Positions 1 through 32,600 of a DNA stretch of 33,946 bases are shown here, piece after piece. The stretch is from the NCBI GenBank assembly GCA_031264975.1, contig JAISDH010000369.1:1-33946 (forward strand), in the 5' to 3' direction. Made by a program: the position numbers and the translations under genes. The stretch is from Bacteroidales bacterium. Lineage in GTDB: Bacteria; Bacteroidota; Bacteroidia; Bacteroidales; WCHB1-69. The notes beneath the pieces are model-generated. The model was not told where the DNA came from and searched no databases. It was given only the letters and a program-made list of their open reading frames with translations. Every line of letters begins with the position of its first letter. The stretch's first letter is position 1.

Positions 1-96
1 CTCTTTTGTGCTCATGGAAGCAAGTATTTGCTTTGCTTTATTTGCCTTTTCAGGCTGTTTTTCGGGTTTTGACTGTTGCAGTTGTTCATTTTCCAT
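1..96 (-). CDS. 5' end of the next tra-operon gene (TraL/TraM position), truncated by the window edge
   Basis: There is an ATG at 96 on the minus strand, 2 nt past the traK stop. It reads MENEQLQQSKPEKQPEKANKAKQILASMSTKE... and runs off the left edge. Identity is inferred only from Bacteroidetes traK-traL/traM synteny. Confidence 0.35.
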   Translation of the reverse strand, partial: MENEQLQQSKPEKQPEKANKAKQILASMSTKE

Positions 97-98
97 AG

Positions 99-722: not shown

Positions 723-723
723 T

Positions 724-1779: not shown

Positions 1780-1781
1780 AA

Positions 1782-2717: not shown

Positions 2718-5197
2718 TTTATTTTTTGCTCATTAACCATATCTCTGATAGCCATTTCTAAATCCCCATTATAACGCTCATTAGCAAGATTAAACAGGGT
2801 CGTTTTTTCTGTTTCTTCCGTACTGTATGTTAAATAGGCCTCCGGCGAAACTTCTACCCCATACACCGCCGAGTGCGCACCATTCAAATCAATATATATT
2901 TCCCGATATACACGGTGTGGATCCAAGTTTTGATTAAGTGACAGTACTTGCGCCTTCTGCTTTTCCGTCAATCCAAGCAAAGCTTGTATATCTTCAAACC
3001 TGTTCATATATTTTCGCTGGTCGCATAATATTTTGCAGTCGGAATTATTAATGATAGATTGCTTTACTATTTCCGAGTGGATAATATCCTCGACTTCCTG
3101 CGTGACAATAATAGCTTCGCCGAAGAATTTGCGAACAGTTTTAAACAAGTATTTTATGTATTCAGCCATCCCCTCCTTGGCGATGGCTTTCCATGCTTCT
3201 TCGATTAAAATCACCTTGCGTATGCCTTTTAACCGGCGCATCTTATTGATGAATGTTTCCATGATGATAATAGTAACCACCGGAAACAATATTTTATGGT
3301 CTTTAATGTTATCCAACTCAAAAATAACAAACCGCTTGTTCAATAAGTCTAATTGTTTATCGGAGTTCAATAAATAATCATATTCCCCGCCCTTGTAATA
3401 GGGTTCAAGGACATTTAAAAAATTGTCGATATCAAAATCCTTGTCTTTTATTTTTTTTCTAACAACAATTTCCCGATAGTTATTGCCGACATATTCGTAA
3501 AATGTGTTAAAGCACGGAATGATGGACTGGTCTCTTTTTATAAGTTCGAGATAGCCGTTTACCGCATTGGATAAATTAACTTCTTCAGCCCGTGACGACG
3601 TTTCCGTGTCCTTTTTCCATAACGCATAAATAAGCGCCTTAATACTCTCTTTCTTTTCAATGTCAAAAATACCGTCATCCGTATAGAACGGATTGAATGT
3701 AATGGGATTTTCTTCGGTGTAAGTTAAATAAATCCCATCTTTACCGCTCGTTTTTTTATTTATTAACTGACATAGTCCTAAATAACTGTTGCCGGTATCT
3801 ACGAGGACAATGTGCGAATTTTGCTCGTAGTATTGTCGCATGATGTGATTGGTGAAAAAACTCTTGCCGGAACCGGACGGCCCGAGTATGAATTTATTCC
3901 GATTTGTTATTATCCCGCGTTTCATCGGTGCATCCGAAATATCTACATGTAACGGCTTACCGGTATTTCGATCGGTAAGTTTAATCCCGAATGGAGACAG
4001 GGAATCCCTTTGGCACGTTTCATAGGTAAGGAAACAAGTAGCGACTTCCAAGAAAGTCATAAAAGTGTCTTCACTTGGAAAATCCGCCGCATTGCCCGGC
4101 ATACCTGCCCAAAATAGCACAGGTGCATCAACAACATTATGGCGGGCCTTACAGTCCATTGCCGTGATTTGAGAACCCACATCATTTCTCACTCGTTTAA
4201 GCTCGGCATCACTATCTGCCCATGCAACCACATTAAAATGCGCACGGATCGTTAAATGGCCTCCTTCGTGAATGGCATTTAAAAAGCTTTCTATTTGCTC
4301 GTGATTTACCATGTTAGAGCGGGAGAGGCGGGACAGTGAAAACATCCGTTTGCTTTGTGATTCTAATTTGCGAATATTGTCCTGATGGTTGTCAATAAAG
4401 ATATACTGGTTATATGTATGATTGCATGGAAGTAATAATCCTACCGAAGCAGCATAGCTGAGCGTACAGTCACTTTTATCGGTAGATAATTTTTCATACT
4501 TGCAATCCGGACTAACCGTGAATGGTAAATCGTCTATATCTGACAATGTATGCACACATACTTTTTTATCACCAATGACAATATTTTCTGGATTAAACTG
4601 AATATCTTTGAATACTACTTTTTCTGTCGCGCCGTCAAGGGTAATGTATTTATCCAATAAATTACAGATGTCGACTTCATCGGTTAATCTCTTCATTTTA
4701 AAATAAGTACTTTCACTTAAAATACTGGCAAACTGCCCTACAGTCTCTTCAAAACTGTTTATCACATCGGATGAAAGCATTTCGCGAGGGACCAGCCGCC
4801 CCCGACAGAGTGATGTGGTCAAGGACATTTTACGAGCATTGTTTTTCGTGGTTTTTGTGATAAACAAGTAGCACTTATGTGATAAATATGGGCGCTCAAT
4901 AAAATGCATCTCATGTGTTTTTGTTAAAAAATCACTGGATTCATGATGTGGCGTGTAAGTTTCTTTAATAAACCAATCCTGCTTATGGACTACGGTGTAA
5001 TCCGGGAGTATTTTTATAGCCTTGGTAAAGACCGCATGAATGCTTGCATACTCTTCCTGTGTAAGCGTAAATATTTCCGGCAGATCGACCACAAATGGAA
5101 TTGTTATATCCGCGTATTTGGATATAATAAATCCATTTTCTATCTTGTAGATAGGGTTACGGTTTTCAACAGTGCTGGTTGGCAGGATATTTTTCAC
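2714..5197 (-). CDS. traG: TraG, VirB4-family conjugative ATPase
   Basis: 827 aa. Walker A is GPSGSGKS and Walker B-like is VILIEEAW. Size and position after traE/traF are typical of the Bacteroidetes T4SS VirB4 homolog. Confidence 0.9.
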   Translation of the reverse strand: MKNILPTSTVENRNPIYKIENGFIISKYADITIPFVVDLPEIFTLTQEEYASIHAVFTKAIKILPDYTVVHKQDWFIKETYTPHHESSDFLTKTHEMHFIERPYLSHKCYLFITKTTKNNARKMSLTTSLCRGRLVPREMLSSDVINSFEETVGQFASILSESTYFKMKRLTDEVDICNLLDKYITLDGATEKVVFKDIQFNPENIVIGDKKVCVHTLSDIDDLPFTVSPDCKYEKLSTDKSDCTLSYAASVGLLLPCNHTYNQYIFIDNHQDNIRKLESQSKRMFSLSRLSRSNMVNHEQIESFLNAIHEGGHLTIRAHFNVVAWADSDAELKRVRNDVGSQITAMDCKARHNVVDAPVLFWAGMPGNAADFPSEDTFMTFLEVATCFLTYETCQRDSLSPFGIKLTDRNTGKPLHVDISDAPMKRGIITNRNKFILGPSGSGKSFFTNHIMRQYYEQNSHIVLVDTGNSYLGLCQLINKKTSGKDGIYLTYTEENPITFNPFYTDDGIFDIEKKESIKALIYALWKKDTETSSRAEEVNLSNAVNGYLELIKRDQSIIPCFNTFYEYVGNNYREIVVRKKIKDKDFDIDNFLNVLEPYYKGGEYDYLLNSDKQLDLLNKRFVIFELDNIKDHKILFPVVTIIIMETFINKMRRLKGIRKVILIEEAWKAIAKEGMAEYIKYLFKTVRKFFGEAIIVTQEVEDIIHSEIVKQSIINNSDCKILCDQRKYMNRFEDIQALLGLTEKQKAQVLSLNQNLDPHRVYREIYIDLNGAHSAVYGVEVSPEAYLTYSTEETEKTTLFNLANERYNGDLEMAIRDMVNEQKIK

Positions 5198-5529
5198 GGT
5201 TTATTTTTCGTTTTAATAAAACTTATAGAGAAAATATGTTTAAAACTCTTTCTGGAAATCAAAAAGCGAGGACATCTGCGTCGCGCCTGTTTTTTCATCA
5301 ATCCATATTGACCATATTTGGAGTTCATGCGAAATACAGAAACTATAAGCATAAGCGCCAGTCCAATAACAGTGATAAGGCTACCCACAATATTCACATT
5401 AAACAGACGAAGTATTATAAAGAGCATAAACAGGATAATAATACCCACGACGAAATATACCAGATATTGCGCCCGTAAACCTTTAAACTCAACAGTTTTG
5501 TTTATGCCCTTAAATACTTGATATTCCAT
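5194..5529 (-). CDS. traF: TraF-like small membrane protein (DUF4133 type, VirB3-like position)
   Basis: The preferred start is MEYQVFKGINKTVEFKGL at 5529, 2 nt after the traE stop. The ORF track extends it to 5562, overlapping traE. It has two TM helices and a basic tail. Its stop overlaps the traG start by 4 nt. Confidence 0.7.
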   Translation of the reverse strand: MEYQVFKGINKTVEFKGLRAQYLVYFVVGIIILFMLFIILRLFNVNIVGSLITVIGLALMLIVSVFRMNSKYGQYGLMKKQARRRCPRFLISRKSFKHIFSISFIKTKNKP

Positions 5530-5530
5530 C

Positions 5531-5869
5531 CTACAAGAATATTGCTTTAATAAATACACCAACGGCTGCTAAAAACAGTGCTGCGCCAAACCATGCCGCG
5601 GCCAATTTCGTCGCATTGGGGTCTCCACTACTCCACTTTGAGTAAACAATAAAACCTCCAATAATGCCTACAATCGCAGCAATCGCAAGCAATGCCTTGT
5701 ATGCTGTATCATAAAGGCCGGACACCTCTGATGTCGTCGTGTTCAACGCCGTTTTCGCTTTTGCGATACCAGAAGTCTGCGCGGATAGCTCTGGAACGAG
5801 CAGCACAATACAGAATGCCACGAGTAACGTAGCGTAAATTTTAAATAATTTGTTTTTGTTTTTTTTCAT
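5531..5869 (-). CDS. traE: TraE-like pilin-type protein (DUF4134 type, VirB2-like position)
   Basis: 112 aa with a signal peptide ending ...ELSAQ and two C-terminal hydrophobic helices (AIAAIVGIIGGFIVY, AAWFGAALFLAAVGVFI). This is the typical Bacteroidetes TraE layout. Confidence 0.7.
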   Translation of the reverse strand: MKKNKNKLFKIYATLLVAFCIVLLVPELSAQTSGIAKAKTALNTTTSEVSGLYDTAYKALLAIAAIVGIIGGFIVYSKWSSGDPNATKLAAAWFGAALFLAAVGVFIKAIFL

Positions 5870-5886
5870 TTTTTTTAAATTTAGAA

Positions 5887-6378
5887 TTATTGATTAATAT
5901 TATTAAGTATGTCATCTATACGTCGCGATATCTCATCTTTAGTTTTTATCATCTTTTCAAAAAAATCCGTGTCTTTTATTTGTTTAATGGTCTGTTTTAC
6001 ATCCTCTAAATTTTTATTGTCAAAATCAGATAACGGTTTATCATTGTCAACCACAGTGACCATTTGCTGTATTTCTTCAAACCCGACAATACTTCCTTCT
6101 TGGGTGTTATTATCAATGTTGTCATCATCAACCATAGCTTTGTCATCAATCTCAATACTGTCATATTCCACCTCAAAATTGTCTTCCGATAAATCATTCC
6201 CTAATGAATCTGAGATATTATCTTCCACTGTTTTTTCTTTTTCCAACTGAAAAACATCATGTGCAATACCCATCAGCCCATCCACCGGCTCCTGCTTTTC
6301 CTGTTCCGAAAAAAGCAAGGTTTTTACAAGAATACTAACTAAAATCCAAACCGACATAACACCGATAATATAAATCAT
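5887..6378 (-). CDS. traD: TraD-like acidic membrane-anchored protein
   Basis: 163 aa with an N-terminal TM helix, a long Asp/Glu-rich middle and a helical C-terminus. It has the same architecture and operon position as Bacteroides TraD. Sequence conservation is weak. Confidence 0.5.
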   Translation of the reverse strand: MIYIIGVMSVWILVSILVKTLLFSEQEKQEPVDGLMGIAHDVFQLEKEKTVEDNISDSLGNDLSEDNFEVEYDSIEIDDKAMVDDDNIDNNTQEGSIVGFEEIQQMVTVVDNDKPLSDFDNKNLEDVKQTIKQIKDTDFFEKMIKTKDEISRRIDDILNNINQ

Positions 6379-6384
6379 AAAAAA

Positions 6385-6822
6385 TCAAAATATTGTGACC
6401 GGCCTTTCTGCAAGCCACACTTCAAAATCCTTCTTGTATTTGTTAAAATGCTCCAAAAGAATATTATCTATGTATGCGCCTACGGCTACTTTATTATCGA
6501 AAATACGGGCGATAACACGCTCGGCAATACATAATGTTTCCTTGCTAATTCCAACGTTGCTTCTATAGACTCCGTTAATAGTTCTACTTAAAAACCTTTC
6601 CTCATACATATTTTTTTTCCCATTCCCTCCATTTCCGTTACTATGAATTTCCTTTGAGGGAAATGGCTGATTTGTGTTCTTTTCTTTTTCAGGAAATTCA
6701 ACAGGATTTTCTGTAGTAGTAACCGCATCTGGCATTGCTTCTATTTTCTCAGTTTGCTTTTGAAAACTACCAGCCATACGTGCTAAAACTTCTGCCTCAC
6801 TCAGTTGATTTTTTTTAGCCAT
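6385..6822 (-). CDS. DUF3408-type conjugal transfer protein (TraB/TraC position)
   Basis: 145 aa. The C-terminal block YEERFL...VGISKETLCIAERVIARIF...YIDNILLEHFNKYKKDFEVW matches the DUF3408 pattern from memory. It lies between traA and traD. Confidence 0.6.
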   Translation of the reverse strand: MAKKNQLSEAEVLARMAGSFQKQTEKIEAMPDAVTTTENPVEFPEKEKNTNQPFPSKEIHSNGNGGNGKKNMYEERFLSRTINGVYRSNVGISKETLCIAERVIARIFDNKVAVGAYIDNILLEHFNKYKKDFEVWLAERPVTIF

Positions 6823-9571: not shown

Positions 9572-10099
9572 ATGAGAATAACTTTACTAGAAGAAGAATA
9601 TGAAACTGTGAGGGTGGGCAATTTAGAGATATTAAATAAGAATATCTACAGTCCAGATATAGCCGTTGAATACGATGGTAACTGCTATTTTGACTTTATA
9701 GGCGTTAAGGTAATTAGCGAACTTTTAGAAGGACAAGATACAAAATTTCGTGTACCTACAGATGATGACTTTGAATATCTTTACAACCTTGGCAGTCGAT
9801 GGGTGGAACAAGGAGAAGTGGGTAATAATCTTGCCGGGCGGTTTTTTGGGAAAAAGGCAAACATTGCAACAATGGACGATTTAAAAAACTGTATATTCTT
9901 GCCAGCGACAGGCTACTGTGACCCTCTTGCTGCGCTCGTCAGCCAAAATAACACTGCCTACTATTGGAGTAGTACGTGCTATAACAGTAGTAGTAGATAC
10001 GTCCAATGCTTCAATAATAACCTCGTGTATTCGTGGAACTACTACCACAAGGGCGACGGATTTTCCGTGCGTTGTGTTCGAGATGCTTATGGCTCATGA
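9572..10099 (+). CDS. FISUMP-type (Fibrobacter succinogenes major paralogous) domain protein, no signal peptide
   Basis: 175 aa. The blocks TVRVGNLEILNKNI, FRVPTDDDFEYL, IFLPATGY, YYWSST and GFSVRCVRD match the TIGR02145-type domain as I remember it. The N-terminus MRITLLEEEYE is not a signal or lipoprotein sequence. Confidence 0.55.
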   Translation: MRITLLEEEYETVRVGNLEILNKNIYSPDIAVEYDGNCYFDFIGVKVISELLEGQDTKFRVPTDDDFEYLYNLGSRWVEQGEVGNNLAGRFFGKKANIATMDDLKNCIFLPATGYCDPLAALVSQNNTAYYWSSTCYNSSSRYVQCFNNNLVYSWNYYHKGDGFSVRCVRDAYGS

Positions 10100-10191: not shown

Positions 10192-12204
10192 ATGAACATA
10201 GAAGATGAAAAATTATTAGGAAAAATCCTGAATTTTATACGGATGGGAAGTGTTTTGCTACTAGCTATGCACTGCTACTGGTTTTGCCACAAGTTATTTG
10301 TAACATTCGGGCTATATCATTCGTTTGTGGACAATATATTTGTTAAACTCCAAAACTCATCCGGTGTATTTGATGATTTGTGGATAACAAAAGTGTTATG
10401 TGTCCTGTTATTATTTGTTAGTTGTATAGGTAATAAAGGGAAAAAAAATGAAAAGATAGAAATCAACACCATCGCTTTTAGAGCGATACTTGGAGCAATA
10501 TTCTTCTTTTTCAATTTCTTAGTATTTAAATTAACCGGAGTATCCATTATGAAATACAGCATTTATTGTATTGCATTGATAACAGGGTATATATTGCTTC
10601 TTTCCGCTGCAATGTTAATTTCCAGACTCATCAAACACAATTTGATGAAAGATGTATTTAATGCTGAAAATGAGAGTTTTATGCAAGAGCAGAAATTGAT
10701 GGTTAATGAGTACTCTGTGAATATACCCACAAAGTTCTATTATCACTCACGTTGGCATAATGGATGGATAAATGTTGTAAATCCTTTTCGTGCAAGCTTT
10801 GTATTAGGAACTCCAGGTTCCGGCAAATCATTTGCCGTCATAAATAATTACATCAAACAACAAATTGAAAAAGGATTTGCTCTGTACATTTATGACTATA
10901 AATTCCCAGATTTGACTGAAATTGCATATAACCATTTACGTCTAAATTCGCAGGGTTATAAAAATGGCGTTACGCCTAAATTCTATATTATCAATTTTGA
11001 CGATCCGAGAAAAAGCCACCGGTGCAACCCCATACATCCGACATTCATGACGGATATCTCTGACGCTTACGAAAGCGCCCATGTCATCATGTTAAATCTC
11101 AATAAAACATGGATACAGAAACAAGGCGATTTCTTTGTGGAATCGCCAATTATCCTGTTGGCAGCTATTTTTTGGTATCTGAAAATTTATCAAAATGGGA
11201 AATACTGTACCTTCCCACACGCAATAGAATTTCTGAACAAAAAATATGCAGACATCTTTACCATTTTAACCTCATATCATGATTTGGAAAACTACCTGTC
11301 ACCGTTTATGGACGCATGGGAAGGTGGAGCGCAAGACCAATTACAAGGACAAATCGCATCTGCCAAAATTCCTCTTTCAAGAATGATTTCGAAACAACTT
11401 TACTGGGTAATGACAGGCGATGATTTTACACTTGACATAAATAATCCCCAAGAACCGAAGATTCTTTGTGTAGGAAACAATCCCGACCGTCAAAATATTT
11501 ACTCTGCAGCACTGGGCTTATACAATAGCCGTATTGTAAAATTAATCAATAAAAAAGGGCAACTCAAAAGTGGCGTTTTAATTGATGAGTTGCCGACTAT
11601 TTATTTTCGCGGATTGGATAACCTGATTGCCACAGCACGAAGTAATAAAGTGGCTGTTTGCCTCGGTTTTCAGGACTATTCACAACTTACACGCGATTAT
11701 GGCGACAAAGAAAGCAAGGTGATACAAAATACTGTTGGGAACGTTTTCTCCGGGCAAGTTGTTGGTGACACTGCCAAAAACTTGTCTGAAAGGTTTGGGA
11801 AAATTCTTCAACAAAGACAATCAATCAACATTAACCGACAAGACACAAGCACCTCTATAAGCACCCAAATGGATAGCCTTATTCCGGCAAGTAAAATAGC
11901 AGGTCTTTCACAAGGTATGTTTGTTGGGGCCGTTACCGATAATTTCGGAGAAGAAATAGAGCAAAAAATATTTCATGCAAAAATTCTTGTAGATGTAGAA
12001 CGGGTAAAAGCTGATGAAAAACGATATGTGAAATTACCCATTATAACATCATTTGTGGATGATACAGGAATTGACAGGTTAGATGAAATGATAGATAAAA
12101 ATTATGAGCAAATTAAAATTGATGTTACAAATATCGTAAATTCAGAATTGAATAGAATTGCGAATGACCCCAGCTTGTCGCATTTGATTGAAAAACAACA
12201 GTAA
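10192..12204 (+). CDS. mobC: Type IV coupling protein (TraG/TraD family; Bacteroides MobC)
   Basis: 670 aa with N-terminal TM helices. Walker A is GTPGSGKS and Walker B-like is VLIDELP. It is the last gene of the mob operon. Confidence 0.85.
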   Translation: MNIEDEKLLGKILNFIRMGSVLLLAMHCYWFCHKLFVTFGLYHSFVDNIFVKLQNSSGVFDDLWITKVLCVLLLFVSCIGNKGKKNEKIEINTIAFRAILGAIFFFFNFLVFKLTGVSIMKYSIYCIALITGYILLLSAAMLISRLIKHNLMKDVFNAENESFMQEQKLMVNEYSVNIPTKFYYHSRWHNGWINVVNPFRASFVLGTPGSGKSFAVINNYIKQQIEKGFALYIYDYKFPDLTEIAYNHLRLNSQGYKNGVTPKFYIINFDDPRKSHRCNPIHPTFMTDISDAYESAHVIMLNLNKTWIQKQGDFFVESPIILLAAIFWYLKIYQNGKYCTFPHAIEFLNKKYADIFTILTSYHDLENYLSPFMDAWEGGAQDQLQGQIASAKIPLSRMISKQLYWVMTGDDFTLDINNPQEPKILCVGNNPDRQNIYSAALGLYNSRIVKLINKKGQLKSGVLIDELPTIYFRGLDNLIATARSNKVAVCLGFQDYSQLTRDYGDKESKVIQNTVGNVFSGQVVGDTAKNLSERFGKILQQRQSININRQDTSTSISTQMDSLIPASKIAGLSQGMFVGAVTDNFGEEIEQKIFHAKILVDVERVKADEKRYVKLPIITSFVDDTGIDRLDEMIDKNYEQIKIDVTNIVNSELNRIANDPSLSHLIEKQQ

Positions 12205-12267: not shown

Positions 12268-12284
12268 CATATTTATAAATTAAA

Positions 12285-12312
12285 AATTATTAATATTATA
12301 ATATTAATAATT
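12285..12312. repeat. Perfect 28-bp A/T-only palindrome
   Basis: AATTATTAATATTA|TAATATTAATAATT is a perfect reverse complement about its centre. It sits in a tract (12271-12415) where I count four G and no C. Confidence 0.9.
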
Positions 12313-12389
12313 AATATATTAATATGAATTTATGATTTTAATGAATAAAATATTATATTAATTATAATAAAATATAAATAATATATTAT

Positions 12390-12397
12390 TATATTTG
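12390..12397 (+). promoter_or_regulatory. Bacteroidetes -7 promoter box (TAnnTTTG) for the 12416 operon
   Basis: TATATTTG lies 19 nt upstream of the ATG at 12416 and downstream of the mob terminator. Confidence 0.45.
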
Positions 12398-12415
12398 TAA
12401 AAAAATATAATAATT

Positions 12416-13555
12416 ATGGAAAACAACATAAAAAAAGAAAACAATCCTAAAAAAGAAAAAAAGGAATCAAAACAAACGATAGCGGAAGCACTATTTGGCG
12501 TTACTGTCGATGAACGCGACGGATTAATCAATAACGCGTATCGAAATTTCATGGAGAAATATCATCGTGAGCCCAGAATTCCGATAGACAAATTCAAAAA
12601 GATGTGGGCAGATTTTGAAAAACTCGGACTTACTATGCTTAAATTGCAACAAGCCGAAGCCATGCCACAGCTTATTGACGGTAAAACTACTGAAAAAGTT
12701 TTACCAATCACGATAGAAGTGGCTGGAGCCAGAATAGACACAGAGGGAAAAATTGTTTTGCATAAAAATAAAGACGGTGAAGTTTCTTTGAAATTATATC
12801 CAATAAAAAACGAACCGAATTTAAAAGAGTATTTCGGACATGTTTTTACGAACGAAGAGCGTGAAAATATTCTAAAAACAGGCTCGCCGGGCACAGTAGT
12901 TTATGCTGAGTTTAATAAGGAAGAAGGTAAAGTGCCGGTTCTTTTAACACTGGACAGAGATACTAATCATTTTGTTGCACAACGAAAAGAATACATTAAA
13001 ATTCCTGACACATTCTTCCAAGTAAAATTGTCGGAAGAACAAAAACAACAATTGAGCGAGGGGAAGATTGTCAGAATAGAAGGTATGAAATCACTTGAAA
13101 AACAGAAAGCCTTTTCCACAAATGTGGTATATAACGCTCAAAGAAGAGGGCTTGAATTACTGTTTGAAAATCAAGCAAAGAAACTTTTTCCGCCAAAAAA
13201 AATATCGAATATGGAACTAACCGAACAGCAGCAAGACGCTTTGAAAGGAGGTAAGAGCATATTTGTGGAAAATTTGACAGATAAACAAGGACGAAAGTAC
13301 GATGCTTATATAACGTGGAATAATAAGAATGGGATGCTGAATTTTTCATCAAAAAATCCGAATGATGATACTATAAAGAAAACTGTAACACCTGAACACA
13401 AAGTTCAGGTGGCTGCTAACAACGATGGCCATAAACCGGAAGCCCTGAAGAATGTAAAAGGAGCTGTAGAAAAGAAACAGCCTGATACCCCAACGGCAAA
13501 ACAAAAGCAAGAAAAAACTGCTATAACTCCGAAGAAAAAAGGCATGAAAATGTAA
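12416..13555 (+). CDS. DUF4099/DUF3945-type conjugative-element protein
   Basis: 379 aa. It has repeated modules of the form [hT-EQ..L..GK.I.h....K.GK.Y.A.h], namely VKLSEEQKQQLSEGKIVRIEG... and MELTEQQQDALKGGKSIFVENLTDKQGRKYDAYITW. The N- and C-termini are Lys-rich and the tail is TPKKKGMKM. Confidence 0.6.
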   Translation: MENNIKKENNPKKEKKESKQTIAEALFGVTVDERDGLINNAYRNFMEKYHREPRIPIDKFKKMWADFEKLGLTMLKLQQAEAMPQLIDGKTTEKVLPITIEVAGARIDTEGKIVLHKNKDGEVSLKLYPIKNEPNLKEYFGHVFTNEERENILKTGSPGTVVYAEFNKEEGKVPVLLTLDRDTNHFVAQRKEYIKIPDTFFQVKLSEEQKQQLSEGKIVRIEGMKSLEKQKAFSTNVVYNAQRRGLELLFENQAKKLFPPKKISNMELTEQQQDALKGGKSIFVENLTDKQGRKYDAYITWNNKNGMLNFSSKNPNDDTIKKTVTPEHKVQVAANNDGHKPEALKNVKGAVEKKQPDTPTAKQKQEKTAITPKKKGMKM

Positions 13556-13622: not shown

Positions 13623-14282
13623 ATGGATGGAGTAAGCAATATAGAAATAATAAATTCCCGATTCAACGACGAGTTGCAACGGCAAATTGCCGGAATGCTA
13701 CCGAAGGTACATACTTACCAATTAGGAAATGCCGGAGATATTTTGCAGTCGGCATCAATTCCAAACCTTCCCGTCGAACTACAGGCATCGCGCCTTAGTG
13801 ACAAGTCCATGCAGGAAAACCATCCGTTTGATTTATCGGAGATAAAGGATTTACCTAAAGCAATTCAAAATCCCATGGCCGTACTTCGTAGTGCCACCCA
13901 TATTGGAAGCTATGTGATTATGACTGAAATTGAGCACGAGGGGAAGAATTACGTAGTCGCGTTACAAGCTAATAAAAGAAAAGGAAGTATTGAAATAAAC
14001 GATATAAGAAGTGTCCACTATCGTCGGACAAATGCTCATATAGCCAATTGGATTGATGAAGGATTATTGGAATATGCTGATAAGAAAAAATTAACCGGTT
14101 GGATTAACAAACAGCGGTACAATTCCGCTGAGGTTACTAATTCAACCGGTAATCTATTTAAACATGCAGCAAAGATAATAGAAAATTTTGAAAATCCAAA
14201 ATTATTGGATACAAATTTACATCATTCTGCTGAAAACTCTTTAAATAAAAAAAAATATGGTAATTTTAAACAAAAATGGTGA
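13623..14282 (+). CDS. Hypothetical protein, possibly a polyvalent-protein-associated (MuF-C/PBECR-like) domain
   Basis: 219 aa. The block HPFDLSEIKDLPKAIQNPMAVLRSATHIGSYVIMTEIEHEGKNYVVALQ...INDIRSVHYR resembles domains found at the ends of phage/ICE polyvalent proteins. This call is from memory only. Its 3' end overlaps the next gene by 26 nt across an A9 run. Confidence 0.45.
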   Translation: MDGVSNIEIINSRFNDELQRQIAGMLPKVHTYQLGNAGDILQSASIPNLPVELQASRLSDKSMQENHPFDLSEIKDLPKAIQNPMAVLRSATHIGSYVIMTEIEHEGKNYVVALQANKRKGSIEINDIRSVHYRRTNAHIANWIDEGLLEYADKKKLTGWINKQRYNSAEVTNSTGNLFKHAAKIIENFENPKLLDTNLHHSAENSLNKKKYGNFKQKW

Positions 14283-15126
14283 GCGTGAAGTCATCGTTCC
14301 CAGTGACCCCAAAACGTCTCTTGAAACACTTACGGTGTTGGCAAAAGATGAAGACGTGGCCGTTCGTCGGGCTGTGGCTGAAAATCCCAATGCACTGGCG
14401 GAAACGCTTGCGACATTGGCAAAAGATAAAGAAGGATTGGTGCGCATGCGTGTTGCTGAAAATCCCAATGCACTGGCGGAAACGCTTGCGACATTGGCAA
14501 AAGACAAAGATGTGGACGTTCGCCGGACTGTTGCCGAAAATCACCATACGCCGGCTAAAATGCTTGCAACACTGGCAAAGGACAAAGAGGTGGGCGTTCG
14601 CCAGGGTGTCGCGAATAATCCAAGTACACCAGCTAAAATGCTTGCAACACTGGCAAAAGACAAAATGAATAATGTCCGTGCGGCTGTTGCTAAAAATCCT
14701 ATGACACCAGTTGATGCACTTATTGCATTAGCAAAAGACGAAGATTCGGACATTCGATGGGCAGTCACTAAAAACCCCTATGCTTTTCCTGAGTTGCTTG
14801 CAATATTGGCAAAAGATAAAGATTTAGGTGTCCGTGTATCTGCTACTCGTTCTGATAATTTTGTACCACCTCACATCCCATCCAAGATTGGAAATGTCGA
14901 AATAACTGCTGAGCAACGCTTGGCATTACAAGAAGGAAAAGGGATTGAGATAAAAGGAATAAAAGATAAAGCAGGGAAATTATATGATACCACTTACGTT
15001 ATTATTGAACAAAAGACAAATAAAATCAAATTACTACAGCAACAGGATAAAAATAAATTTCAAAAAGCACAAATTAAGTCTGCTGCTAAAATTGCTCCGA
15101 TAAAAAGAAAAGGAATAAAAATATAA
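14257..15126 (+). CDS. LRV/HEAT-like repeat protein with DUF3945-like C-terminal module (paralog A)
   Basis: 289 aa. Seven 26-aa units have the consensus NPNxxxExLAxLAKDxDxxVRxxVAx. They are followed by IGNVEITAEQRLALQEGKGIEIKGIKDKAGKLYDTTYVII and the tail APIKRKGIKI. Confidence 0.8.
   Translation: MVILNKNGEREVIVPSDPKTSLETLTVLAKDEDVAVRRAVAENPNALAETLATLAKDKEGLVRMRVAENPNALAETLATLAKDKDVDVRRTVAENHHTPAKMLATLAKDKEVGVRQGVANNPSTPAKMLATLAKDKMNNVRAAVAKNPMTPVDALIALAKDEDSDIRWAVTKNPYAFPELLAILAKDKDLGVRVSATRSDNFVPPHIPSKIGNVEITAEQRLALQEGKGIEIKGIKDKAGKLYDTTYVIIEQKTNKIKLLQQQDKNKFQKAQIKSAAKIAPIKRKGIKI
14305..14850 (+). repeat. In-frame 78-bp tandem repeat array (7 units)
   Basis: The period was measured directly: AATCCCAATGCACTGGCGG occurs at 14383 and 14461, and the next unit starts at 14539. 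Units are 60-100% identical. Confidence 0.9.
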
Positions 15127-15143
15127 TCAATTCAAATAATATT

Positions 15144-16040
15144 ATGAGAAAAAACATGGAGAATATAGAAAATTTGCCTGCTGAAATGCTTATGACGTTG
15201 GCAAAAGATGAAGACGTGGCCGTTCGTCGGGCTGTGGCTGAAAATCCCAATGCACTGGCGGAAACGCTTGCGACATTGGCAAAAGATGAAGATGGGCGTG
15301 TTCGCACGCACGTTGCTAAAAATCTCAACACATCGGTGGAAGCACTTGCAACGTTGGCAAAAGATGAAGATTGGGAGATTCGCATGCACGTTGCCGGTAA
15401 TTCCAATGCACCGGTTGACATACTTGCCGCATTAGCAGAAAACAAAGAGGGATTGGTGCGCATGCGTGTTGCTGAAAATCCCAATGCACTGGCGAAAACG
15501 CTTGCGACATTGGCAAAAGATGAAAATTGGCGTGTTCGCACGCACGTTGCTGAAAATCTCAACACACCGGTGGAAGCACTTGCAACGTTGGCAAAAGATA
15601 AAGATCCGAATATTCGAAAGAGTGTTGCTGGACATCTTAATACATCTATTGATGTACTTGCAGAATTGGCAAAAGACAAAGAGGCGATGGTACGCATAGC
15701 TATTGCTAGAAATCCCAATGCACCGGCGGCAACGCTTGCGACATTGGCAAAAGATGAAGATCAGGATGTTCGCATGCGTGCGGAAACACTTGCAAAAATC
15801 CCATCCAAGATTGGAAATGTTGAAATAACCGCAGAGCAACGCTTGGCATTACAAGAAGGAAAAGGTATTGAGATAAAAGGAATAAAAGATAAAGCAGGGA
15901 AAGCGTATGACACCACTTACGTTATTATTGACCAAAAGACAAAAAAAATCAAATTACTGCAACAACAGGATAAAAAGAAATTTCAAATTAAGTCTGTTGC
16001 TAAAATTGCTCCGATAAAAAGAAAAGGAATAAAAATATAA
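15144..16040 (+). CDS. LRV/HEAT-like repeat protein with DUF3945-like C-terminal module (paralog B)
   Basis: 298 aa with about eight 26-aa units. The C-terminal 80 aa are nearly identical to paralog A and the tail is the same, APIKRKGIKI. Confidence 0.8.
   Translation: MRKNMENIENLPAEMLMTLAKDEDVAVRRAVAENPNALAETLATLAKDEDGRVRTHVAKNLNTSVEALATLAKDEDWEIRMHVAGNSNAPVDILAALAENKEGLVRMRVAENPNALAKTLATLAKDENWRVRTHVAENLNTPVEALATLAKDKDPNIRKSVAGHLNTSIDVLAELAKDKEAMVRIAIARNPNAPAATLATLAKDEDQDVRMRAETLAKIPSKIGNVEITAEQRLALQEGKGIEIKGIKDKAGKAYDTTYVIIDQKTKKIKLLQQQDKKKFQIKSVAKIAPIKRKGIKI
15174..15782 (+). repeat. In-frame 78-bp tandem repeat array with a 234-bp higher-order duplication
   Basis: The block starting at 15237 recurs at 15471, an offset of 234 = 3 x 78. 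I count about six mismatches over the first ~135 nt. Confidence 0.85.
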
Positions 16041-16085
16041 TTCCATAATTCCACTACGTACGGTTACAAGATTTATTGAGGAAAA

Positions 16086-19000
16086 ATGGCATACTCTAAA
16101 AAACATCAACTGCAACAAAATGTTGAAGTAATAAAACAATTATTGTTGCTCGAAATTCTAAAACAAAAAGCTATTCCTGAGCAACTTGATTTATTTAAAC
16201 GTTTCTCCGGGTTCGGAGCGCTAAAATGTATTTTATTACCGACAGAAAAGGAAGAAGACAAACAGCACTGGCCGAAATCAGAACTTGAACTATTTCCTTT
16301 GGCTCAAGAACTACACCGTGTTCTTGCAACACATGAACTACAAGGGGCGGGGGACTACAAGCGTTATATGGATAGTATTAAAAACTCCGTACTCACAGCG
16401 TTTTACACATCATCGGAGATAGTGCAATCTATTGCGACTTCACTGTCCGCAGCGGGCATACAGGCAACAAACATTCTTGACCCCTCCGCAGGTGCTACCG
16501 GGCAGTTTGTCCAGGACTTCAAAGCAGTTTTTCCGCAAAGTAATATTGTAGGCTATGAGAAAGACCTTATTTCAGGGAAAATTTTGCAACATCTATACTC
16601 CAATGAGAAAATACACATAGCAGGCTTTGAAACTATCCCGGGGGGGAGTAATGACCGTTTCGATATTGTCGCTTCTAACATCCCCTTTGGGGATATTTCT
16701 GTGCCTGATACTGCGTTTCATTTGAGTAAGGAGCCCACTCGGCAACTGGCTGCCCGGCATATTCATAATTATTTCTTTCTTAAAGGTATAGATACTTTGC
16801 ACGAGGGTGGGATACTGGCTTTTATTACTTCACAGGGTGTGGCTGACGCTCCGGCGAACAAGCCCATCCGGGAGTGGCTGATGAGCAAAGCTAACCTCGT
16901 TTCGGCAATACGGTTACCCAATAACTTGTTTTTGGAAAATGCCGGCACGGAAGTCGGGAGCGACCTGATTATTTTACAGAAAAACTCCCGCAAAGCGCAG
17001 CTTTCGGATAATGAAAAACAGTTTATAGAAACAGGACAAACCAAAGCGGGGATTGGCATTAATAAGTATATTTATAACCGGGCAAATTTAATTTTTACTG
17101 ATACTAAAATCGGAACAGACCCCTACGGCAAGCCTGCCGTTATTTTGACCCATAGCGGTGGCGTTCCCGGTATCGCCGCAGATTTGAAGAAAAACCTTAT
17201 TCGTGATTTTTCGGGAAAATTGGATATTAGCCTGTACCAGCAACATGCATCCGTTAATGTCAATCAACCACAACCAAAGCAACAGGCGCCATCATCAGAG
17301 CCAATATTGACGCTCTATGACCTGTTCGGGTTCTCGACCCCATCTGCGCAGCAGGCAATTTTGCCGAAGCCACCCGAACAGGCGGCAGACCCCAAACCAC
17401 AATCGCAAAAATATACCGGAAAAATTGCGGGATACCATAAACCCGGCGCCCTGGTCAAAAATGACCGGTCGGAAGTGGGAGTATTAAGTACGGATGCAGA
17501 CAATAATTTTATCTTTACTCCGCTACTATTGCAGGAAAACAGGGACAAAATCGCACACTACATTGACGTCCGTGATGCTTACTATAGCTTGTATTCTACC
17601 GAACAGATTACACAAACTGAAAATCAAAGCGGGCGTGAGCGCCTGAACCAACTTTATGATGAATTTATTGCACGCTATGGTGTGCTCAATAGCAAGGAGA
17701 ATCGCACACTTGTTGATATGGATGCCAACCGTGTCGAGATGCTTGCTGTCGAGCGTTTGAAAGATGAGCATTACGTTAAAACTGATATTTTTCACAGACC
17801 GGTTGCATTTGCGCAGCACGTTGAAATTGCCACACCCGAAGAAGCCTTGCTCGCCTCGCTTGACAGATACGGTGAAGTACGGCTTGACTTTATTAGCAAA
17901 GAGGTTAACATTTCTGAAGAGGAAGCGTTCCGGCAGCTTGAGAACAAAATTTACTATAATCCGCTCAGTAAGGCAAATTACGAAATTGCTGCTAAATTTC
18001 TATCGGGCAATATCGTAGAAAAAATTGACGCATTTTCCGATTTTGTACGACGGAATGGCGAGAGCGAACAACTCGCAAATTCCATCGCTGCTTTGCAGAA
18101 GGTTATTCCCGAAAAAATTCCGTTTGAATTATTAGAGTTCAACTTCGGGGAGCGTTGGATACCGGGGAAAGTATACAACGAATTTGCAACTCATTTGTTC
18201 CAAACTGAAACGGAGGTGCGATACTATACAGCATCCGATGAATTTGTAGTAAAAGTACAAGGTCATGCTACGGCAGAAATTTACAACAAGTATAACATCC
18301 GTACAGAGGCTCGCAATTATAACGGCATAAAATTAATGCAATATGCATTGCATAATACCACGCCCAATGTGACGAAAACCGTTGAAATTAATGGCGAGGA
18401 ACACAAGGTGCGCGACACACAAGCAATACAGCGTATAAATGCAAAAACTGAAGAAATTCGCAATGAATTTACCAAATGGCTGAATCAACAACCGCAGGCA
18501 TTCAAGGATGAAATTACGGATTTGTATAATCGAAAATTTAACAGTTTTGTAAAAGCGACGTATGATGGCACGCATCAAACCCTGCCCGGTTTATCCTTTG
18601 AAAAGTTCAAGTACAAATCCCTTTATGATAGCCAAAAAAATGCCGTTTGGATGCTCAAACAAAACGGCGGTGGCATTATAGACCACGAAGTGGGCGGTGG
18701 GAAAACAATGATTATGTGCTGTGCTGCTCATGAAATGAAGCGGCTCGGCTTAGCCAACCGCCCGATGATTATCGGGCTCAAGGCCAACATACAGGCGATT
18801 GCTGAAACCTACCGGGACGCCTACCCTGACGCTAAAATTCTGTATCCGGGCAAAGGTGATTTCACAGTGAACAACCGGGAAAAATTTATCAATAAAATAA
18901 AAAACAACGATTGGGACTGTGTTATCCTGACGCATGAACAATTCGGGAACATTCCGCAGTCGCTGAAGGTGCAAAAGAGCATTTTAAACGAAGAACTTGA

Positions 19001-21815
19001 TGCTGCGGAAGAAAATTTATCAATAGCCCAAGGTGAAGACGGTGCAAGCAAAGCCCAGTTACGCGGATTAGAACGGCGCAAGGCTTCGATAGAAACACGC
19101 CTTGCGGTCGTAAATGAAAAAATAAACATCAAAAAAGACAATGTGCCGGATTTTGAGGAATTGGGTATTGACCATATTTTTGTTGATGAAAGCCACCAGT
19201 TCAAAAACCTGACGTTTGCAACCCGGCATAACCAGGTTGCCGGGTTAGGCAACCCGACCGGCAGCGGGCGGGCGTTGAATTTACTTTATGCTATCCGCAC
19301 TATTCAAAATCGCACAGGCAAGGATTTGGGCGCCACATTTCTGTCGGGAACTACTATCAGTAACTCTTTAACCGAGTTATATCTCATTTTTAAATATTTA
19401 CGTCCAAAAGCCTTGGCAGAGCAGAGTGTTCACTCTTTTGATGCTTGGGCGGCCGTGTATGCTAAGAAAACTACCGACTACGAATTTTCTGTAACTAACC
19501 AAATCGTCCAAAAAGACCGCTTCCGGCACTTTATCAAGGTGCCCGAACTTGCCGCTTTTTATTCCGAAATTACCGACTTTAAAACGGCTGCGGATATAGG
19601 TGTTGAACGACCGGAAAAAAACGAAATCCTTTACAACATTCCACCCACGCCGGAACAGGAACAATTCACCAAAAAATTAGTGCAATTCGCCAAGACAGGC
19701 GATGCTACCATACTTGGCCGAGAACCGCTCTCGGAGAGCGAGGAAATGGCCAAAATGCTGTTGGCGACCAATTATGCTCGCAAAATGTCGCTTGACATGC
19801 GGCTAATAAGCCCTGCATACGAAGACCATGTGGATAACAAACTATCTCATTGTGCCAATAAAATTTTTGAGTACTACAAGAAGTTCGACACACAAAAGGG
19901 GACACAATTCATATTCTCCGATTTAGGCACGTATAAAAGTGGAGAGTGGAATGTTTATGATGAGCTAAGACATAAATTAATCGACAAGGGGATTCTTGAA
20001 AAAGAAATAAAATTTGTCCACGAAGCCACGACAGACAAGAAGCGGGATGAGATGTTTCAGGCAATGAATGACGGCAAAATTCGTGTGCTTATAGGCTCCA
20101 CTCAAAAACTGGGAACAGGGGTAAATGCCCAGGAGCGTGCTGTAGCCGTTCATCACCTTGACACGCCCTGGCGCCCATCCGACCTTGAGCAGCGCACAGG
20201 CCGTGCCGTCCGTACCGGCAATAAAGTTGCCAAGCAATTTAACGACAATAAAGTGGATGTGTATATCTATGCTACCGAGCGTACGTTAGACACTTATAAA
20301 TTCAATTTATTACAAAATAAACAGACATTTATTTCCCAAATAAAAAACAATAAATTAGGTTGCCGTAGCATTGACGAAGGCAGCATTGATGAAGCTTCCG
20401 GGATGAATTTCGCAGAGTATGTTGCAATCCTGTCAGGTGACACCAATTTGTTAGAAAAAGCTAAATTAGAGAAGAAAGTTACTGTTTTGGAGAGTGAAAG
20501 AACGATGTTTTATAACGATCGTTATAAAACATCCAAGCAAATAGAGGAAATCAATGGAAAAATAGAAGAAAATAATACCATTATTTCCCGTTTAAAAAGC
20601 GATTTAAAAGCTTTTCAGGAGCAACAGCGTAAATTTCCGAATATATTGCCAAATATTGAACCAGGGGGAGAGGGCAGCAACTTGGAACATATTGCCAAAC
20701 AATTACACATTATCAGGGAAACAGCAAAGACGAAGGGCAGTTATCAGCCCATCGGAACACTGGGCGAGTTCACCTTGCTTGTAAAAACAGAAGCATCAAT
20801 GAAGGAGGGTTTTGAATTTGTAGAAAACCGTTTTTTTGTTGAGCATCCACAGAGCAAAATTAAATATTCATATAATCATGGCATTCTTGCCCAAGATGCC
20901 GAAAAAGCTTGTGCAAATTTTATCAATGCCCTGAATCGCATTCCCGAAACTATAGAAGACTATGAACATAGAAATGATGATTTAATAAAACCGCTACCGG
21001 TGCTACAGGAAATGGTAAGTAAAGAATGGACGAAGGAGGAGGAACTTCGGGAGTTGAAAGGTAAATTGTCGGGGCTGGATGTTACCCTTCAGGGTGTTGT
21101 GGAGCAGGAGCATCCTTCCGGCGACCACGAGGCTGCCCTCTCTCAATCCACTCAAGATTACAAAGCGCCAGAAATCGCTGCTGCGGATCCCGAAACATCT
21201 GTTGAAGTATTAGCGGAACTGGCAAAAAATAAAGATTGGCATATTCGCGAAAGTGTCGCAAAAAATCCCAATACATCGGTGGAAACGCTTGCTACATTGG
21301 CAAAAGATGAAAATTCGGAAGTGCGGGCGGCGGTGGCCGGAAATCCCAATACACCAGGAGAAACGCTAGAACTACTGGCAAAGGACGAACGAGGGTTTGT
21401 TCGTAATAGTGTTGCCGGTAATCCTAAAACACCGACTGAAGTGCTGAAACTGCTGGCAAAAGATGAAGGTGTGCCTATTCGCGATAATATTGCCAAAAAT
21501 CCTAACACTCCTGTTGAAACTCTTACAGAGCTGGCAAAGGATAAAAATGTATTTGTTCGCATATATGTTGCCGACAACCCCAACACACTGCCGAAAATAT
21601 TGGCTGAGTTGGCAAAGGATAAAGATGAGCGAGTTCGCAAAGATGCACAGTATAACATTCAGAAACAAGGACTTGATTTGGGACATCCCGAGATTAAGGC
21701 ATCGGGAAAAATAGAGCCGAAAAAAGCCCCATCGCCGGCATTGGCATCGGCCATCAAACGGCAACCGGTAGCAGGGAAAACGGCCGGAAAGAGAGTGGGA
21801 AAGATAATGCACTGA
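16086..21815 (+). CDS. Fused N6-adenine DNA methyltransferase + SNF2/DEAD-type helicase (P1 DarB-like) with C-terminal LRV-like array
   Basis: 1909 aa.
- **MTase motifs:** FYTSSEIV; motif [13 protein letters not shown] (from nt 16473); motif IV NIPFG (nt 16677).
- **Helicase motifs:** motif I GGGKTM (~18689); DExH as VDESHQFKN (~19185); motif [13 protein letters not shown] (~20189).
- **C-terminal part:** a coiled-coil region, then six LRV-like units, then the basic tail [10 protein letters not shown]. Confidence 0.88.
21186..21656 (+). repeat. In-frame 78-bp repeat array (about 6 units) at the 3' end of the methylase-helicase gene
   Basis: The translated units are [61 protein letters not shown]... 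They have the same consensus as the two upstream paralogs and are visibly related at DNA level, for example AATCCCAATACATCGGTGGAAACGCTTGCTACATTGGCAAAAGATGAA. Confidence 0.85.
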
Positions 21816-23554: not shown

Positions 23555-23821
23555 ATGAATATGGAAGTATTGGAAGTTACAAGCCGGCAATTTCGGGAAA
23601 AGCAAAAAAACTTTTTCGATATGGCAGACACTGGTCGTCAAATAGTCATTCGCAGGGGAAGAAAGCAAGCATACTTCCTCTCACCTGTTGAAGAGGACGA
23701 TTTTGTCGTTACACCCAAACTTTTGAAAAAATTAGAACAAGCCCGCCAGGAGTTCAAAGATGGGAAAACAACAGTATGTAGAACGTTCGAGGAAAATGTA
23801 AAATTTCTTGACTCTTTATGA
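23555..23821 (+). CDS. Antitoxin partner of the Txe/YoeB-type toxin (pair 1)
   Basis: 88 aa. It overlaps the toxin gene by 4 nt (ATGA). It is a paralog of the 32346-32600 product, sharing SREFR..Q..YF....G..I...RG...AY.L, FTPE/TPK and SLKFLESL/NVKFLDSL. Confidence 0.7.
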   Translation: MNMEVLEVTSRQFREKQKNFFDMADTGRQIVIRRGRKQAYFLSPVEEDDFVVTPKLLKKLEQARQEFKDGKTTVCRTFEENVKFLDSL

Positions 23822-24093
23822 CTTACGAAATACATTACTCGAAAGAAGCTTCGACGGCCATTGCAAAGTACAAAAAGTCAAACCCCGCCGCCTATAAAAA
23901 ACTCACATGCCTGCTCAAGGAACTAATGGAACATCCGAGGGCAGGGACAGGTCACCCTGAGCCTTTGGTAAAAGGAAATTCAACAACATATTCAAGACGT
24001 ATCTCAGCTTCCGCAAGGGTCATTTACGACATTTATGACGACATTGTTGTAGTTTTGATTATATCCGTAGAAGGACATTACAATGACAAATAA
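23818..24093 (+). CDS. Txe/YoeB (RelE-superfamily) toxin (pair 1)
   Basis: 91 aa. The blocks EIHYSKEA...KYKKSNP..YKKL..LLKELMEHPRAGTGHPEPL...YSRRI...RVIYDIYDD.VVVLIISVEGHYNDK match the Bacteroidetes Txe/YoeB addiction-module toxin pattern. Confidence 0.8.
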   Translation: MTYEIHYSKEASTAIAKYKKSNPAAYKKLTCLLKELMEHPRAGTGHPEPLVKGNSTTYSRRISASARVIYDIYDDIVVVLIISVEGHYNDK

Positions 24094-32073: not shown

Positions 32074-32349
32074 TCATGTATCGTTATAGTGCCCTTTCGC
32101 AGTTAATACAAGTACAATTATCCTGTCCTCATCTATTCGATATACGAGGCGGTCTTTTTTCGTTATCCGGCGAGACCAGCAACCGGCGTAGTCGTGCTTC
32201 ATTAATTCGGGCTTCCCGGTCCCTGTGCGTGGGTGTTCGTGCAATTCCCTGATGAGCCTTATTACTTTATTATAAGATTGGATATTCGTTCTTTTCAGGT
32301 GTGTAATATCATTTATCGCTTCCGGCATGTATTTCACTTCATAAATCAT
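32074..32349 (-). CDS. Txe/YoeB (RelE-superfamily) toxin (pair 2)
   Basis: 91 aa. It has the same pattern as pair 1: LIRELHEHPRTGTGKPELM...WSRRITKKDRLVYRIDEDRIIVLVLTAKGHYNDT. It is clearly paralogous to the pair 1 toxin but well diverged. Confidence 0.8.
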   Translation of the reverse strand: MIYEVKYMPEAINDITHLKRTNIQSYNKVIRLIRELHEHPRTGTGKPELMKHDYAGCWSRRITKKDRLVYRIDEDRIIVLVLTAKGHYNDT

Positions 32350-32600
32350 AGCGATTCGAGGAATTTAAGCGATTCTTCATGCGTTTTGCAAGCGACCCCC
32401 TCTCCACGCTCGGCTTGTGCTATGGCCCTATCTATCCTGGCGAGCATTTCGGGAGTAAAATACATATCGTCTTCTGTAACCGATGCAAGGGAATAGGCTC
32501 TGTTTTTTCCCCGTTGCACAATAATTTGCTCACCATTGTCAATGTGGTTAAAATATTTTGCCTGGTTATCTCTAAACTCTCTACTGCTAATAACTAACAT
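32346..32600 (-). CDS. Antitoxin partner of the Txe/YoeB-type toxin (pair 2)
   Basis: 84 aa. It has a 4-nt overlap with its toxin gene and is a paralog of the 23555-23821 product. Confidence 0.7.
   Translation of the reverse strand: MLVISSREFRDNQAKYFNHIDNGEQIIVQRGKNRAYSLASVTEDDMYFTPEMLARIDRAIAQAERGEGVACKTHEESLKFLESL

Follow-up and report, generated by a model that had tools for sequence, protein, structure and literature searches.

Recombining LRV repeat arrays as candidate binding modules on DUF3945-tailed proteins of a Bacteroidota conjugative element

Conjugative elements of the Bacteroidota dominate gene flow in gut communities, and their co-transfer of proteins and their anti-defence functions are poorly known. 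In Bartonella, Bep effectors and relaxases carry a bipartite type IV secretion signal, composed of a BID domain and a positively charged tail. Repeat solenoids of the LRV type are represented by the LRV protein of Azotobacter vinelandii (PDB 1LRV); this protein has itself no known function, and for that reason it gives no functional lead. Other described systems with which the present locus can be compared are the alphaRep binders, the repeats of TAL effectors and of Wolbachia ankyrin-repeat genes, and the polyvalent proteins, which include P1 DarB and among which MuF_C/PBECR, RadC and ArdC-N with MPTase are hub domains (PMC5512222). The locus described here lies on a contig of 33,946 bp from a metagenome-assembled genome of the Bacteroidales (MAG; assembly GCA_031264975.1, contig JAISDH010000369.1, analyzed over its full length and referred to as the window), which bears a Bacteroidota-type conjugation system. 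Three consecutive genes of this element, A, B and C, carry arrays of LRV repeats, and the mosaic identity between the arrays of A and B is best explained, on sequence comparison, by recent homologous recombination, through unequal recombination or gene conversion, between the two arrays and within each of them. The whole explanation put forward, in which recombining LRV solenoids would serve as binding or adaptor modules on DUF3945-tailed proteins of a conjugative element, is held with moderate confidence.

The repeat unit measures 78 bp or 26 aa. Gene A (14257–15126, plus strand) encodes a protein of 289 aa in which seven LRV units are followed by DUF3945 and a basic tail (Pfam LRV E 3.5e-25, DUF3945 E 4.5e-6); gene B (15144–16040, plus strand; 298 aa) has the same layout with eight units (Pfam LRV E 2.2e-35, DUF3945 E 1.4e-6); and gene C (16086–21815, plus strand; 1909 aa) combines a DarB-like N6-methylase with an SNF2 helicase, followed by six C-terminal LRV units and a basic tail. 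In the protein-register unit table, array A (units A1–A7, 78 nt each) occupies positions 14305–14850, array B (B1–B8) positions 15165–15788 and array C (C1–C6) positions 21186–21653, all on the plus strand. A preliminary description of the window, made from its letters alone, had reported three arrays of one family in these consecutive genes, with limits that lie within a few bases of the ones given here; Tandem Repeats Finder (TRF) detected the period of 78 in all three genes (at 14338–14710, 15194–15777 and 21478–21627), and the counts of 7, 8 and 6 units were reproduced by the unit table and by a hidden Markov model of the unit. The consensus then proposed, NPNTPxExLxxLAKDxDxxVRxxVAx, was recovered as well, and the units said to be more diverged proved to be so, the mean identity of unit pairs outside the shared blocks being just 60–67%. 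All arrays consist of direct repeats on a single strand. The repeats belong to the LRV family (PF01816/PF25591), a HEAT-like alpha-solenoid: Pfam LRV matches range from E 1e-24 to 1e-35 in the three proteins (87, 119 and 84 bits for A, B and C, respectively, vs. a cut-off of 21.6), LRV_2 also exceeds its cut-off, and the HEAT profile matches all three proteins too. A foreign origin of the arrays was considered and rejected, as their extra G+C sits in codon positions 1 and 2, and the G+C content at third codon positions (GC3, 0.33–0.37) resembles that of the neighboring genes.

An AlphaFold model of B, based on an alignment of 26 sequences, reached a mean predicted local distance difference test score (pLDDT) of 89.9, and shows 16 helices, two per unit, forming a solenoid over residues 13–217, with a small helix-plus-beta domain at residues 230–273 and a disordered basic tail at residues 279–298. 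Within the unit, helix 1 covers positions 6–12 and helix 2 positions 18–26. The top Foldseek match in the PDB was 1LRV (E 1.4e-8, target-normalized template modeling score (TMt) 0.68, root mean square deviation 3.0 Å over 202 columns, 28% identity), with PP2A HEAT repeats and alphaRep binders ranking after it. The early assignment to an LRV/HEAT-like family was therefore sustained by both the Pfam and the structural matches, neither of which pointed to an unrelated fold. Unit positions L9, L12, A13, K14, D15, V20, R21, V24 and A25 are invariant or nearly so, and entropy peaks, at 2.6–3.4 bits, at positions 18, 19, 22, 23 and 26, which fall on one face of helix 2 in the model of B. The same positions are the ones randomized on the binding face of alphaRep (PMC3754942).

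The exchange between A and B is seen most directly in two blocks, both found exactly where they had been placed in the preliminary description. Block 1 (14337–14427, plus strand) is identical at 91 of 91 positions to 15197–15287 of B and can be extended at neither end; it comprises the second half of A1 and the first half of A2, which equal the second half of B1 and the first half of B2. Block 2 (14434–14503, plus strand) matches 15450–15519 of B at 69 of 70 positions, and comprises the second half of A2 and the first half of A3, matching the second half of B4 and the first half of B5; its sole mismatch is a G/A difference at 14479/15495 that exchanges E for K. The two blocks are not adjacent in B, whereas in A only 6 nt separate them (14428–14433, plus strand), a junction that three-way comparison places within the conserved LAKD motif. 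To the left of this junction A tracks B at an offset of 860 and to the right at an offset of 1016, that is, two units further. The junction in A is what an out-of-register crossover between units produces, and the breakpoints, partly out of register, fall in LAKD, the best conserved part of the unit. Shuffling of the alignment columns (20,000 trials) gave exact runs of no more than 37 at offset 860 and 40 at offset 1016, vs. the 91 and 45 observed (permutation P < 5e-5). The halves of the units tell different histories. The first half-unit NPNALAETLATLA is present at 39/39 positions in A2, A3 and B2, at 38/39 in B5 and at 37/39 in B8. The second halves of A1 and B1 are identical (39/39), that of A2 is nearest to B4 (35/39) and that of B2 is nearest to B5 (36/39). 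Through this recombination, halves have been shuffled, the NPNALAETLATLA allele has spread to five units and the number of units changes.

The timing of these exchanges can be gauged from the regions that follow the arrays. The linker, DUF3945 beta domain and basic tail, which in A occupy 14851–15126 (plus strand), are 94% identical in nucleotides between A and B, with a synonymous divergence (dS) of 0.19 and a nonsynonymous divergence (dN) of 0.03, and the two genes are tandem paralogs, each composed of an LRV array, a DUF3945 beta domain and a basic C-terminal tail. The blocks are identical at 160 of 161 positions and the paralogous tails at 217 of 231 (Fisher P 0.006), and the probability of one difference or fewer in 161 nt at the divergence of the tails is 5e-4. 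The A–B tracts therefore post-date the duplication of A and B, since they are significantly more similar than the tails. GC3 in A (14305–15123) was found to be 0.45 over A1–A4, 0.23 over A5–A7 and 0.22 over A5–A7 with the tail (P 8e-5 for the break), which would fit either N-proximal units of another source or a conversion biased toward GC. B holds a higher-order repeat of three units, B2–B4 resembling B5–B7 (TRF period 234, 15231–15758, 84% matches; B2 vs. B5, 74/78), and a 50-nt exact repeat is found inside array A, exact repeats within and between the arrays ranging from 50 to 91 nt. Taken together, the two A–B blocks in different registers, the 50-nt repeat of A, the three-unit repeat of B and the shared half-unit require several exchange events. 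The original claim that the patchy identity stems from unequal recombination or conversion, and not from one old duplication, is accordingly strengthened, as far as recent exchange is concerned, by the permutation test, the half-unit discordance, the junction and the youth of the blocks relative to the tails.

Array C did not take part in these exchanges to any detectable degree. Its units show mean nucleotide identities of 0.60 with the A units and 0.61 with the B units, and of about 60% among themselves; A and C have no exact match of at least 20 nt and no register with a significant run, and B and C share a single 22-mer. Array C is a diverged member of the same family, with no sign of recent exchange with A or B. 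The mosaic exchange first described for all three genes holds for A and B and not for C, and the comparison of half-units found halves intermixed between A and B. The enzyme part of C carries the Pfam domains Eco57I, SNF2-rel_dom and Helicase_C ahead of LRV, and matches phrog_10089, "DarB-like antirestriction", with E 1e-290. Gene C is therefore taken to encode a DarB-like anti-restriction methylase-helicase, predicted to protect DNA in the recipient. The enzyme had been recognized as DarB-like from the outset; the array fused to it, said to be the same as those of A and B, is diverged and of the same family only.

The relatives compared are a few diverged elements, and not variants of one element. 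A scan of genome contigs with the enzyme part of C returned four loci only. At locus L004 the C homolog is 80% identical and an ortholog of A lies directly upstream of it, with no B-like gene between. This A ortholog has eight units vs. the seven of A, one of them of only 22 aa; its units 6–8 match A5–A7 at 72, 64 and 66 of 78 nt, respectively, and its first five units reach at best 58/78 against any A unit, so that A1–A4 have no ortholog in L004. These alignments suggest that the N-proximal units turn over and that the last three units of A, together with the tail, are stable orthologs. At L005 (1466–2743), a MuF_C domain and seven LRV units share one 425-aa open reading frame (ORF) without a DUF3945 tail, and in protein P0005 pentapeptide repeats are followed by three A-like units and an A-like tail that is 72% identical to that of A. 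The closest homolog of C, at L001 (93–6508; 87% identical), has RadC/JAB and a DUF3945-like tail in place of the LRV units, its homology to C stopping after ELRELKGKL, ahead of array C; the lineage of C has gained an LRV array and a basic tail where this closest relative has RadC-DUF3945. In its MAG, the L001 homolog is split into two ORFs (93–4376 and 4388–6508). No LRV units were found at L002 and L003. Array length and content thus vary among L004, L005, P0005 and L001–L003 and are not invariant, and the LRV array acts as an exchangeable module. Variation in repeat content and number between cells or strains had been anticipated; L004, with eight units vs. seven and with replaced N-proximal units, is a case of such variation between related elements.

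The search for further relatives gave little beyond these. With full-length B as the query, generic LRV proteins dominated the matches. Many unrelated metagenomic LRV proteins (alignment of P0001–P0028) have a conserved N-terminal domain (AYPKRIAFKNGKLFAFSAG..KQHVEWWDR; PF10098 in several), which is absent from the window proteins. The viral contigs with MuF_C homologs (L007–L016) contain no LRV units. A metagenome scan with the tail alignment gave 600 pattern matches, none of them confirmed, and a degenerate DNA pattern for the tail found both window copies and nothing in the metagenome or viral contigs. Exact-sequence look-ups of B, P0059 and P0112 found none on record, a word-indexed search with the tail returned just the truncated gene call of the window itself, and a tblastn search of plasmids returned generic LRV/HEAT matches only, outside the Bacteroidota, none of which covered the tail. 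That truncated call, P0059, comprises just the last 153 aa of A, and the gene annotation of these arrays is unreliable for this reason.

The module that follows the arrays in A and B is rare. When the 83-aa tail of A was used as the query in a profile-free search of 1.84 billion representative proteins, only 55 relatives were obtained. About a quarter of these representatives carry 2–9 LRV units directly upstream of the tail, and the other heads include RadC, ArdC-N with MPTase, DUF4116 repeats and pentapeptide repeats; the tail domain is almost always C-terminal. A terminus of the form G-x-[KR]-[MLIV] is present in 20 of the 55 vs. 2 of 56 LRV-only controls, with a lysine at position −7 in 18 of the 20, and the motif can be written as K-x-x-G-h-[KR]-[MIL]-COOH (proteins P0059–P0111 and the window). 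In the window, the gene at 12416 ends in PKKKGMKM, A and B in KRKGIKI and C in GKRVGKIMH; over their final 20 residues these four proteins carry a net charge of +6 to +7, and the relaxase one of +9. Judging from circumstantial signs, namely the basic tails, the conserved terminal motif and the place of the genes next to that of the coupling protein, the C-terminal motif of DUF3945 proteins is possibly a signal by which conjugation systems of the Bacteroidota secrete or target them. A model of the DUF3945 tail gave a pLDDT of 68.6. In P0070 the DUF3945 and Toprim_Crpt matches overlap on one stretch, and both domains occur in the gene at 12416, which hints at a nucleic-acid-binding relative.

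In the explanation favored here, the solenoid would be a protein-binding surface, with its specificity on the exposed helix-2 face (positions 18, 19, 22, 23 and 26), and DUF3945 with the basic C-terminal motif would be a common module that brings its carriers to the type IV machinery of conjugation or its coupling protein, or else to the single strand in transfer. The LRV proteins and LRV-bearing enzymes might act at or with the incoming DNA, much as other anti-restriction and polyvalent proteins do (PMC5512222); once there, they could bind factors of the host or bring in the anti-restriction enzyme, and recombination between arrays would make new combinations of binding units. The position of the arrays as an exchangeable module between varied head domains and a common C-terminal tail fits an adaptor or recognition module, as had been suggested initially. 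If this is true, DUF3945 and the terminal motif would provide a sequence tag for proteins sent with, or targeted to, the DNA of the element, the arrays would be a natural binder scaffold diversified via recombination of paralogous arrays, and LRV would be a new module of the polyvalent and anti-restriction protein network; if it is wrong, the locus is still a clean, though ordinary, instance of recombining arrays in a repeat family already known. A bolder version, which we regard as speculative and unlikely as it stands, takes DUF3945 with K-x-x-G-h-[KR]-[MIL]-COOH as the substrate signal of the Bacteroidota type IV secretion system, or as a tether to the transferred strand, marking proteins sent to recipients, and the LRV arrays as natural "programmable binders" diversified by recombination. 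The marked set would then comprise LRV, RadC, ArdC-like, pentapeptide, DUF4116 and DUF4099 proteins, the helix-2 face of LRV would neutralize recipient defence or host proteins, and recombination would continually yield new specificities.

Several points weigh against a binding or adaptor role. Between A5–A7 and their L004 orthologs the ratio dN/dS was 0.27, and 0.42 at the variable positions, so this nearest pair indicates purifying and not diversifying selection; values above 1 were obtained only in a more distant, saturated comparison. The diversifying pressure first invoked for the arrays thus finds no support in this pair, and the decoy surface proposed with it is conjecture only. Any solenoid is expected to vary at its exposed positions, whether it binds or not. 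No experiment or known homolog links LRV, DUF3945 or the C-terminal motif to a function, the literature on DUF3945, on LRV with conjugative elements and on type IV signals of Bacteroides yielded nothing relevant, and the DUF3945 model has no PDB match (no fold match at E below 0.4). LRV, HEAT and DUF3945 are unmentioned in the survey of polyvalent proteins (PMC5512222, Iyer et al. 2017). The variation of the arrays rests on few comparisons, with only a handful of related loci, and the source is a metagenome-assembled contig, so that assembly could affect repeat order.

This last point can be carried further. In a short-read metagenome contig, strain variants could have been joined into a chimera or the path through the 78-bp repeats mis-threaded, in which case no single molecule would carry the blocks and the unit order, and both the MAG origin of the contig and the exact repeats of 50–91 nt lend themselves to such an error. 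However, A and B keep intact frames, complete units and full-length tails, typical reads are longer than the blocks, similar unit shuffling is seen on independent contigs from other samples, and the three-unit higher-order repeat of B is orderly, so that an assembly artefact is considered quite improbable. A single event in the past, in which A was recently duplicated into B or a B-like segment came in from a different element, followed by replacement or divergence and leaving arrays that are now static, is likewise doubtful, though it has a small chance of being correct. The 94% identity of the tails does imply that the duplication was fairly recent, the GC3 break suggests that A1–A4 and A5–A7 differ in source, and the A-like gene of L004 is found directly upstream of C without an intervening B. 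Nevertheless, the blocks are significantly younger than the tails, at least three separate exchange signals are present (the two A–B blocks in different registers, the 50-nt repeat of A and the half-unit shared by A2, A3, B2, B5 and B8), and B contains an internal three-unit duplication; the several separate tracts favor repeated exchange over one event in the past. Programmed hypervariation, in which the arrays would be the target of a diversity-generating retroelement or of a shufflon driven by an invertase, would suit a mobile element whose repeats show localized variability, and yet it is extremely improbable here: none of the 36 window ORFs scanned contains a reverse transcriptase or recombinase domain, the arrays are all direct repeats on one strand, and the blocks differ by a single G/A and not by adenine-specific mutagenesis between a template and a variable repeat. 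The arrays were rejected as targets of a diversity-generating retroelement on the first and last of these observations.

The arrays could also be inert spacers, or solubility or stability domains, in which exposed residues vary by neutral drift alone; in the closest pair every position class has a dN/dS below 1, no partner is known, and the arrays are dispensable in the relatives L001, L002 and L003. This is nonetheless judged unlikely, given that B, and A if it stands alone, consist of an array and a tail only, so that the array must be the functional head, that the LRV-DUF3945 layout recurs in about a quarter of the tail-family representatives with a spread of two to nine units, and that the variability is concentrated on one helical face, as in engineered binders.

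The window element is a CTnDOT-like Bacteroidota conjugative element, with tra, Mob and YWFCY coupling-protein genes all present. TraJ, DUF4134, TraG/VirB4 with DUF3875, DUF4133, DUF3408 and a ParA-like ATPase are encoded on the minus strand, and MobC and a MobA/VirD2 relaxase on the plus strand. Between the relaxase and coupling-protein genes, at 9572–10099, a small protein resembles the Fibrobacter succinogenes major domain weakly, with a score under the cut-off. The window contains no integrase and the contig ends show no overlap, so the element may be an integrative and conjugative element or a plasmid. The type IV coupling protein (YWFCY with TraG/TraD in Pfam; 10192–12204, plus strand) lies directly upstream of a tight run of genes on the same strand, which begins with a gene carrying DUF4099, two DUF3945 domains and Toprim_Crpt (Pfam; 12416–13555, plus strand) and continues with a MuF_C (PBECR) gene (13623–14282, plus strand; Pfam MuF_C E 4.8e-26, NCBI locus tag LBL13_10295), A, B and C. 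An extremely AT-rich tandem repeat, with a period of about 33 and 3.7 copies, spans the gap between the coupling-protein and DUF4099 genes (12269–12414), and possibly serves the genes that follow as a promoter or other regulatory region; a promoter and terminator scan of 12.0–22.3 kb found nothing enriched over shuffles. Downstream of C follow genes for DUF1896, Fic, two YefM/YoeB pairs, a Bro-N protein and a primase. The two YefM/Phd-YoeB toxin-antitoxin pairs are separate and in opposite orientations (23555–24093, plus strand; 32074–32600, minus strand). Long minus-strand ORFs are open across all three arrays (14241–14547, 15086–15718 and 21158–21658), and are probably a by-product of repeat composition. 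The end of the MuF_C gene overlaps the start of A by 26 nt, next to a run of nine A at 14247–14255 from which the deletion of one A would join the two frames. The MuF_C/A junction is probably a real gene boundary, as far as the homologs indicate, and less probably a site of slippage; the idea that a frameshift has cut A off from the MuF_C gene as its C-terminal part was rejected as unlikely, because most MuF_C homologs stand alone (mostly 185–210 aa) and the fusion junction of L005 is no simple indel from the window.

Compared with the systems named at the outset, the arrays stand closest in family and fold to the LRV protein of Azotobacter vinelandii, which belongs to the same profile family, is the best structural match and, as here, is a right-handed solenoid of paired short helices. 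The window arrays differ from it in lying on a conjugative element, where DUF3945 or a basic tail follows them or a methylase-helicase bears them at its C-terminus; in A and B no further domain than DUF3945 and the tail accompanies the array. With alphaRep and other HEAT-like repeats the arrays share the two-helix repeat solenoid, alphaRep chains being among the top structural matches, but the alphaRep unit has 31 aa vs. 26 aa here, and the variation among paralogous units of the window is no proof of binding. The likeness to polyvalent proteins, P1 DarB among them, lies in gene C, with its DarB-like methylase and SNF2 helicase, in the neighbors and relatives of the window genes, which have the MuF_C/PBECR, RadC and ArdC-N with MPTase domains that act as hubs in that network (PMC5512222), and in the swapping of modules between close relatives: C combines methylase, helicase and LRV, and relatives join LRV to MuF_C or pentapeptide heads. 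A and B, however, are small two-module proteins (LRV and DUF3945) and not large multi-enzyme polypeptides, and none of A, B and C has a processing peptidase. The Bartonella Bep signal offers an analogy only, in that a small folded domain and a basic C-terminus stand behind interchangeable heads in a conjugation-derived setting; DUF3945 has no sequence or structural relation to BID, and the type IV system here is of the Bacteroidota class. In TAL effector repeats and Wolbachia ankyrin-repeat genes, near-identical blocks amid diverged repeats, changes in unit number and exchange between paralogous arrays are found as in A and B, but in another fold and host, the present case being one of two adjacent genes of a mobile element with no linked phenotype. 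The repeat family and the recombination process are of known kinds; the novelty lies in where they are found, namely in a conjugative cluster of the Bacteroidota and together with a rare module of DUF3945 and a basic terminus.

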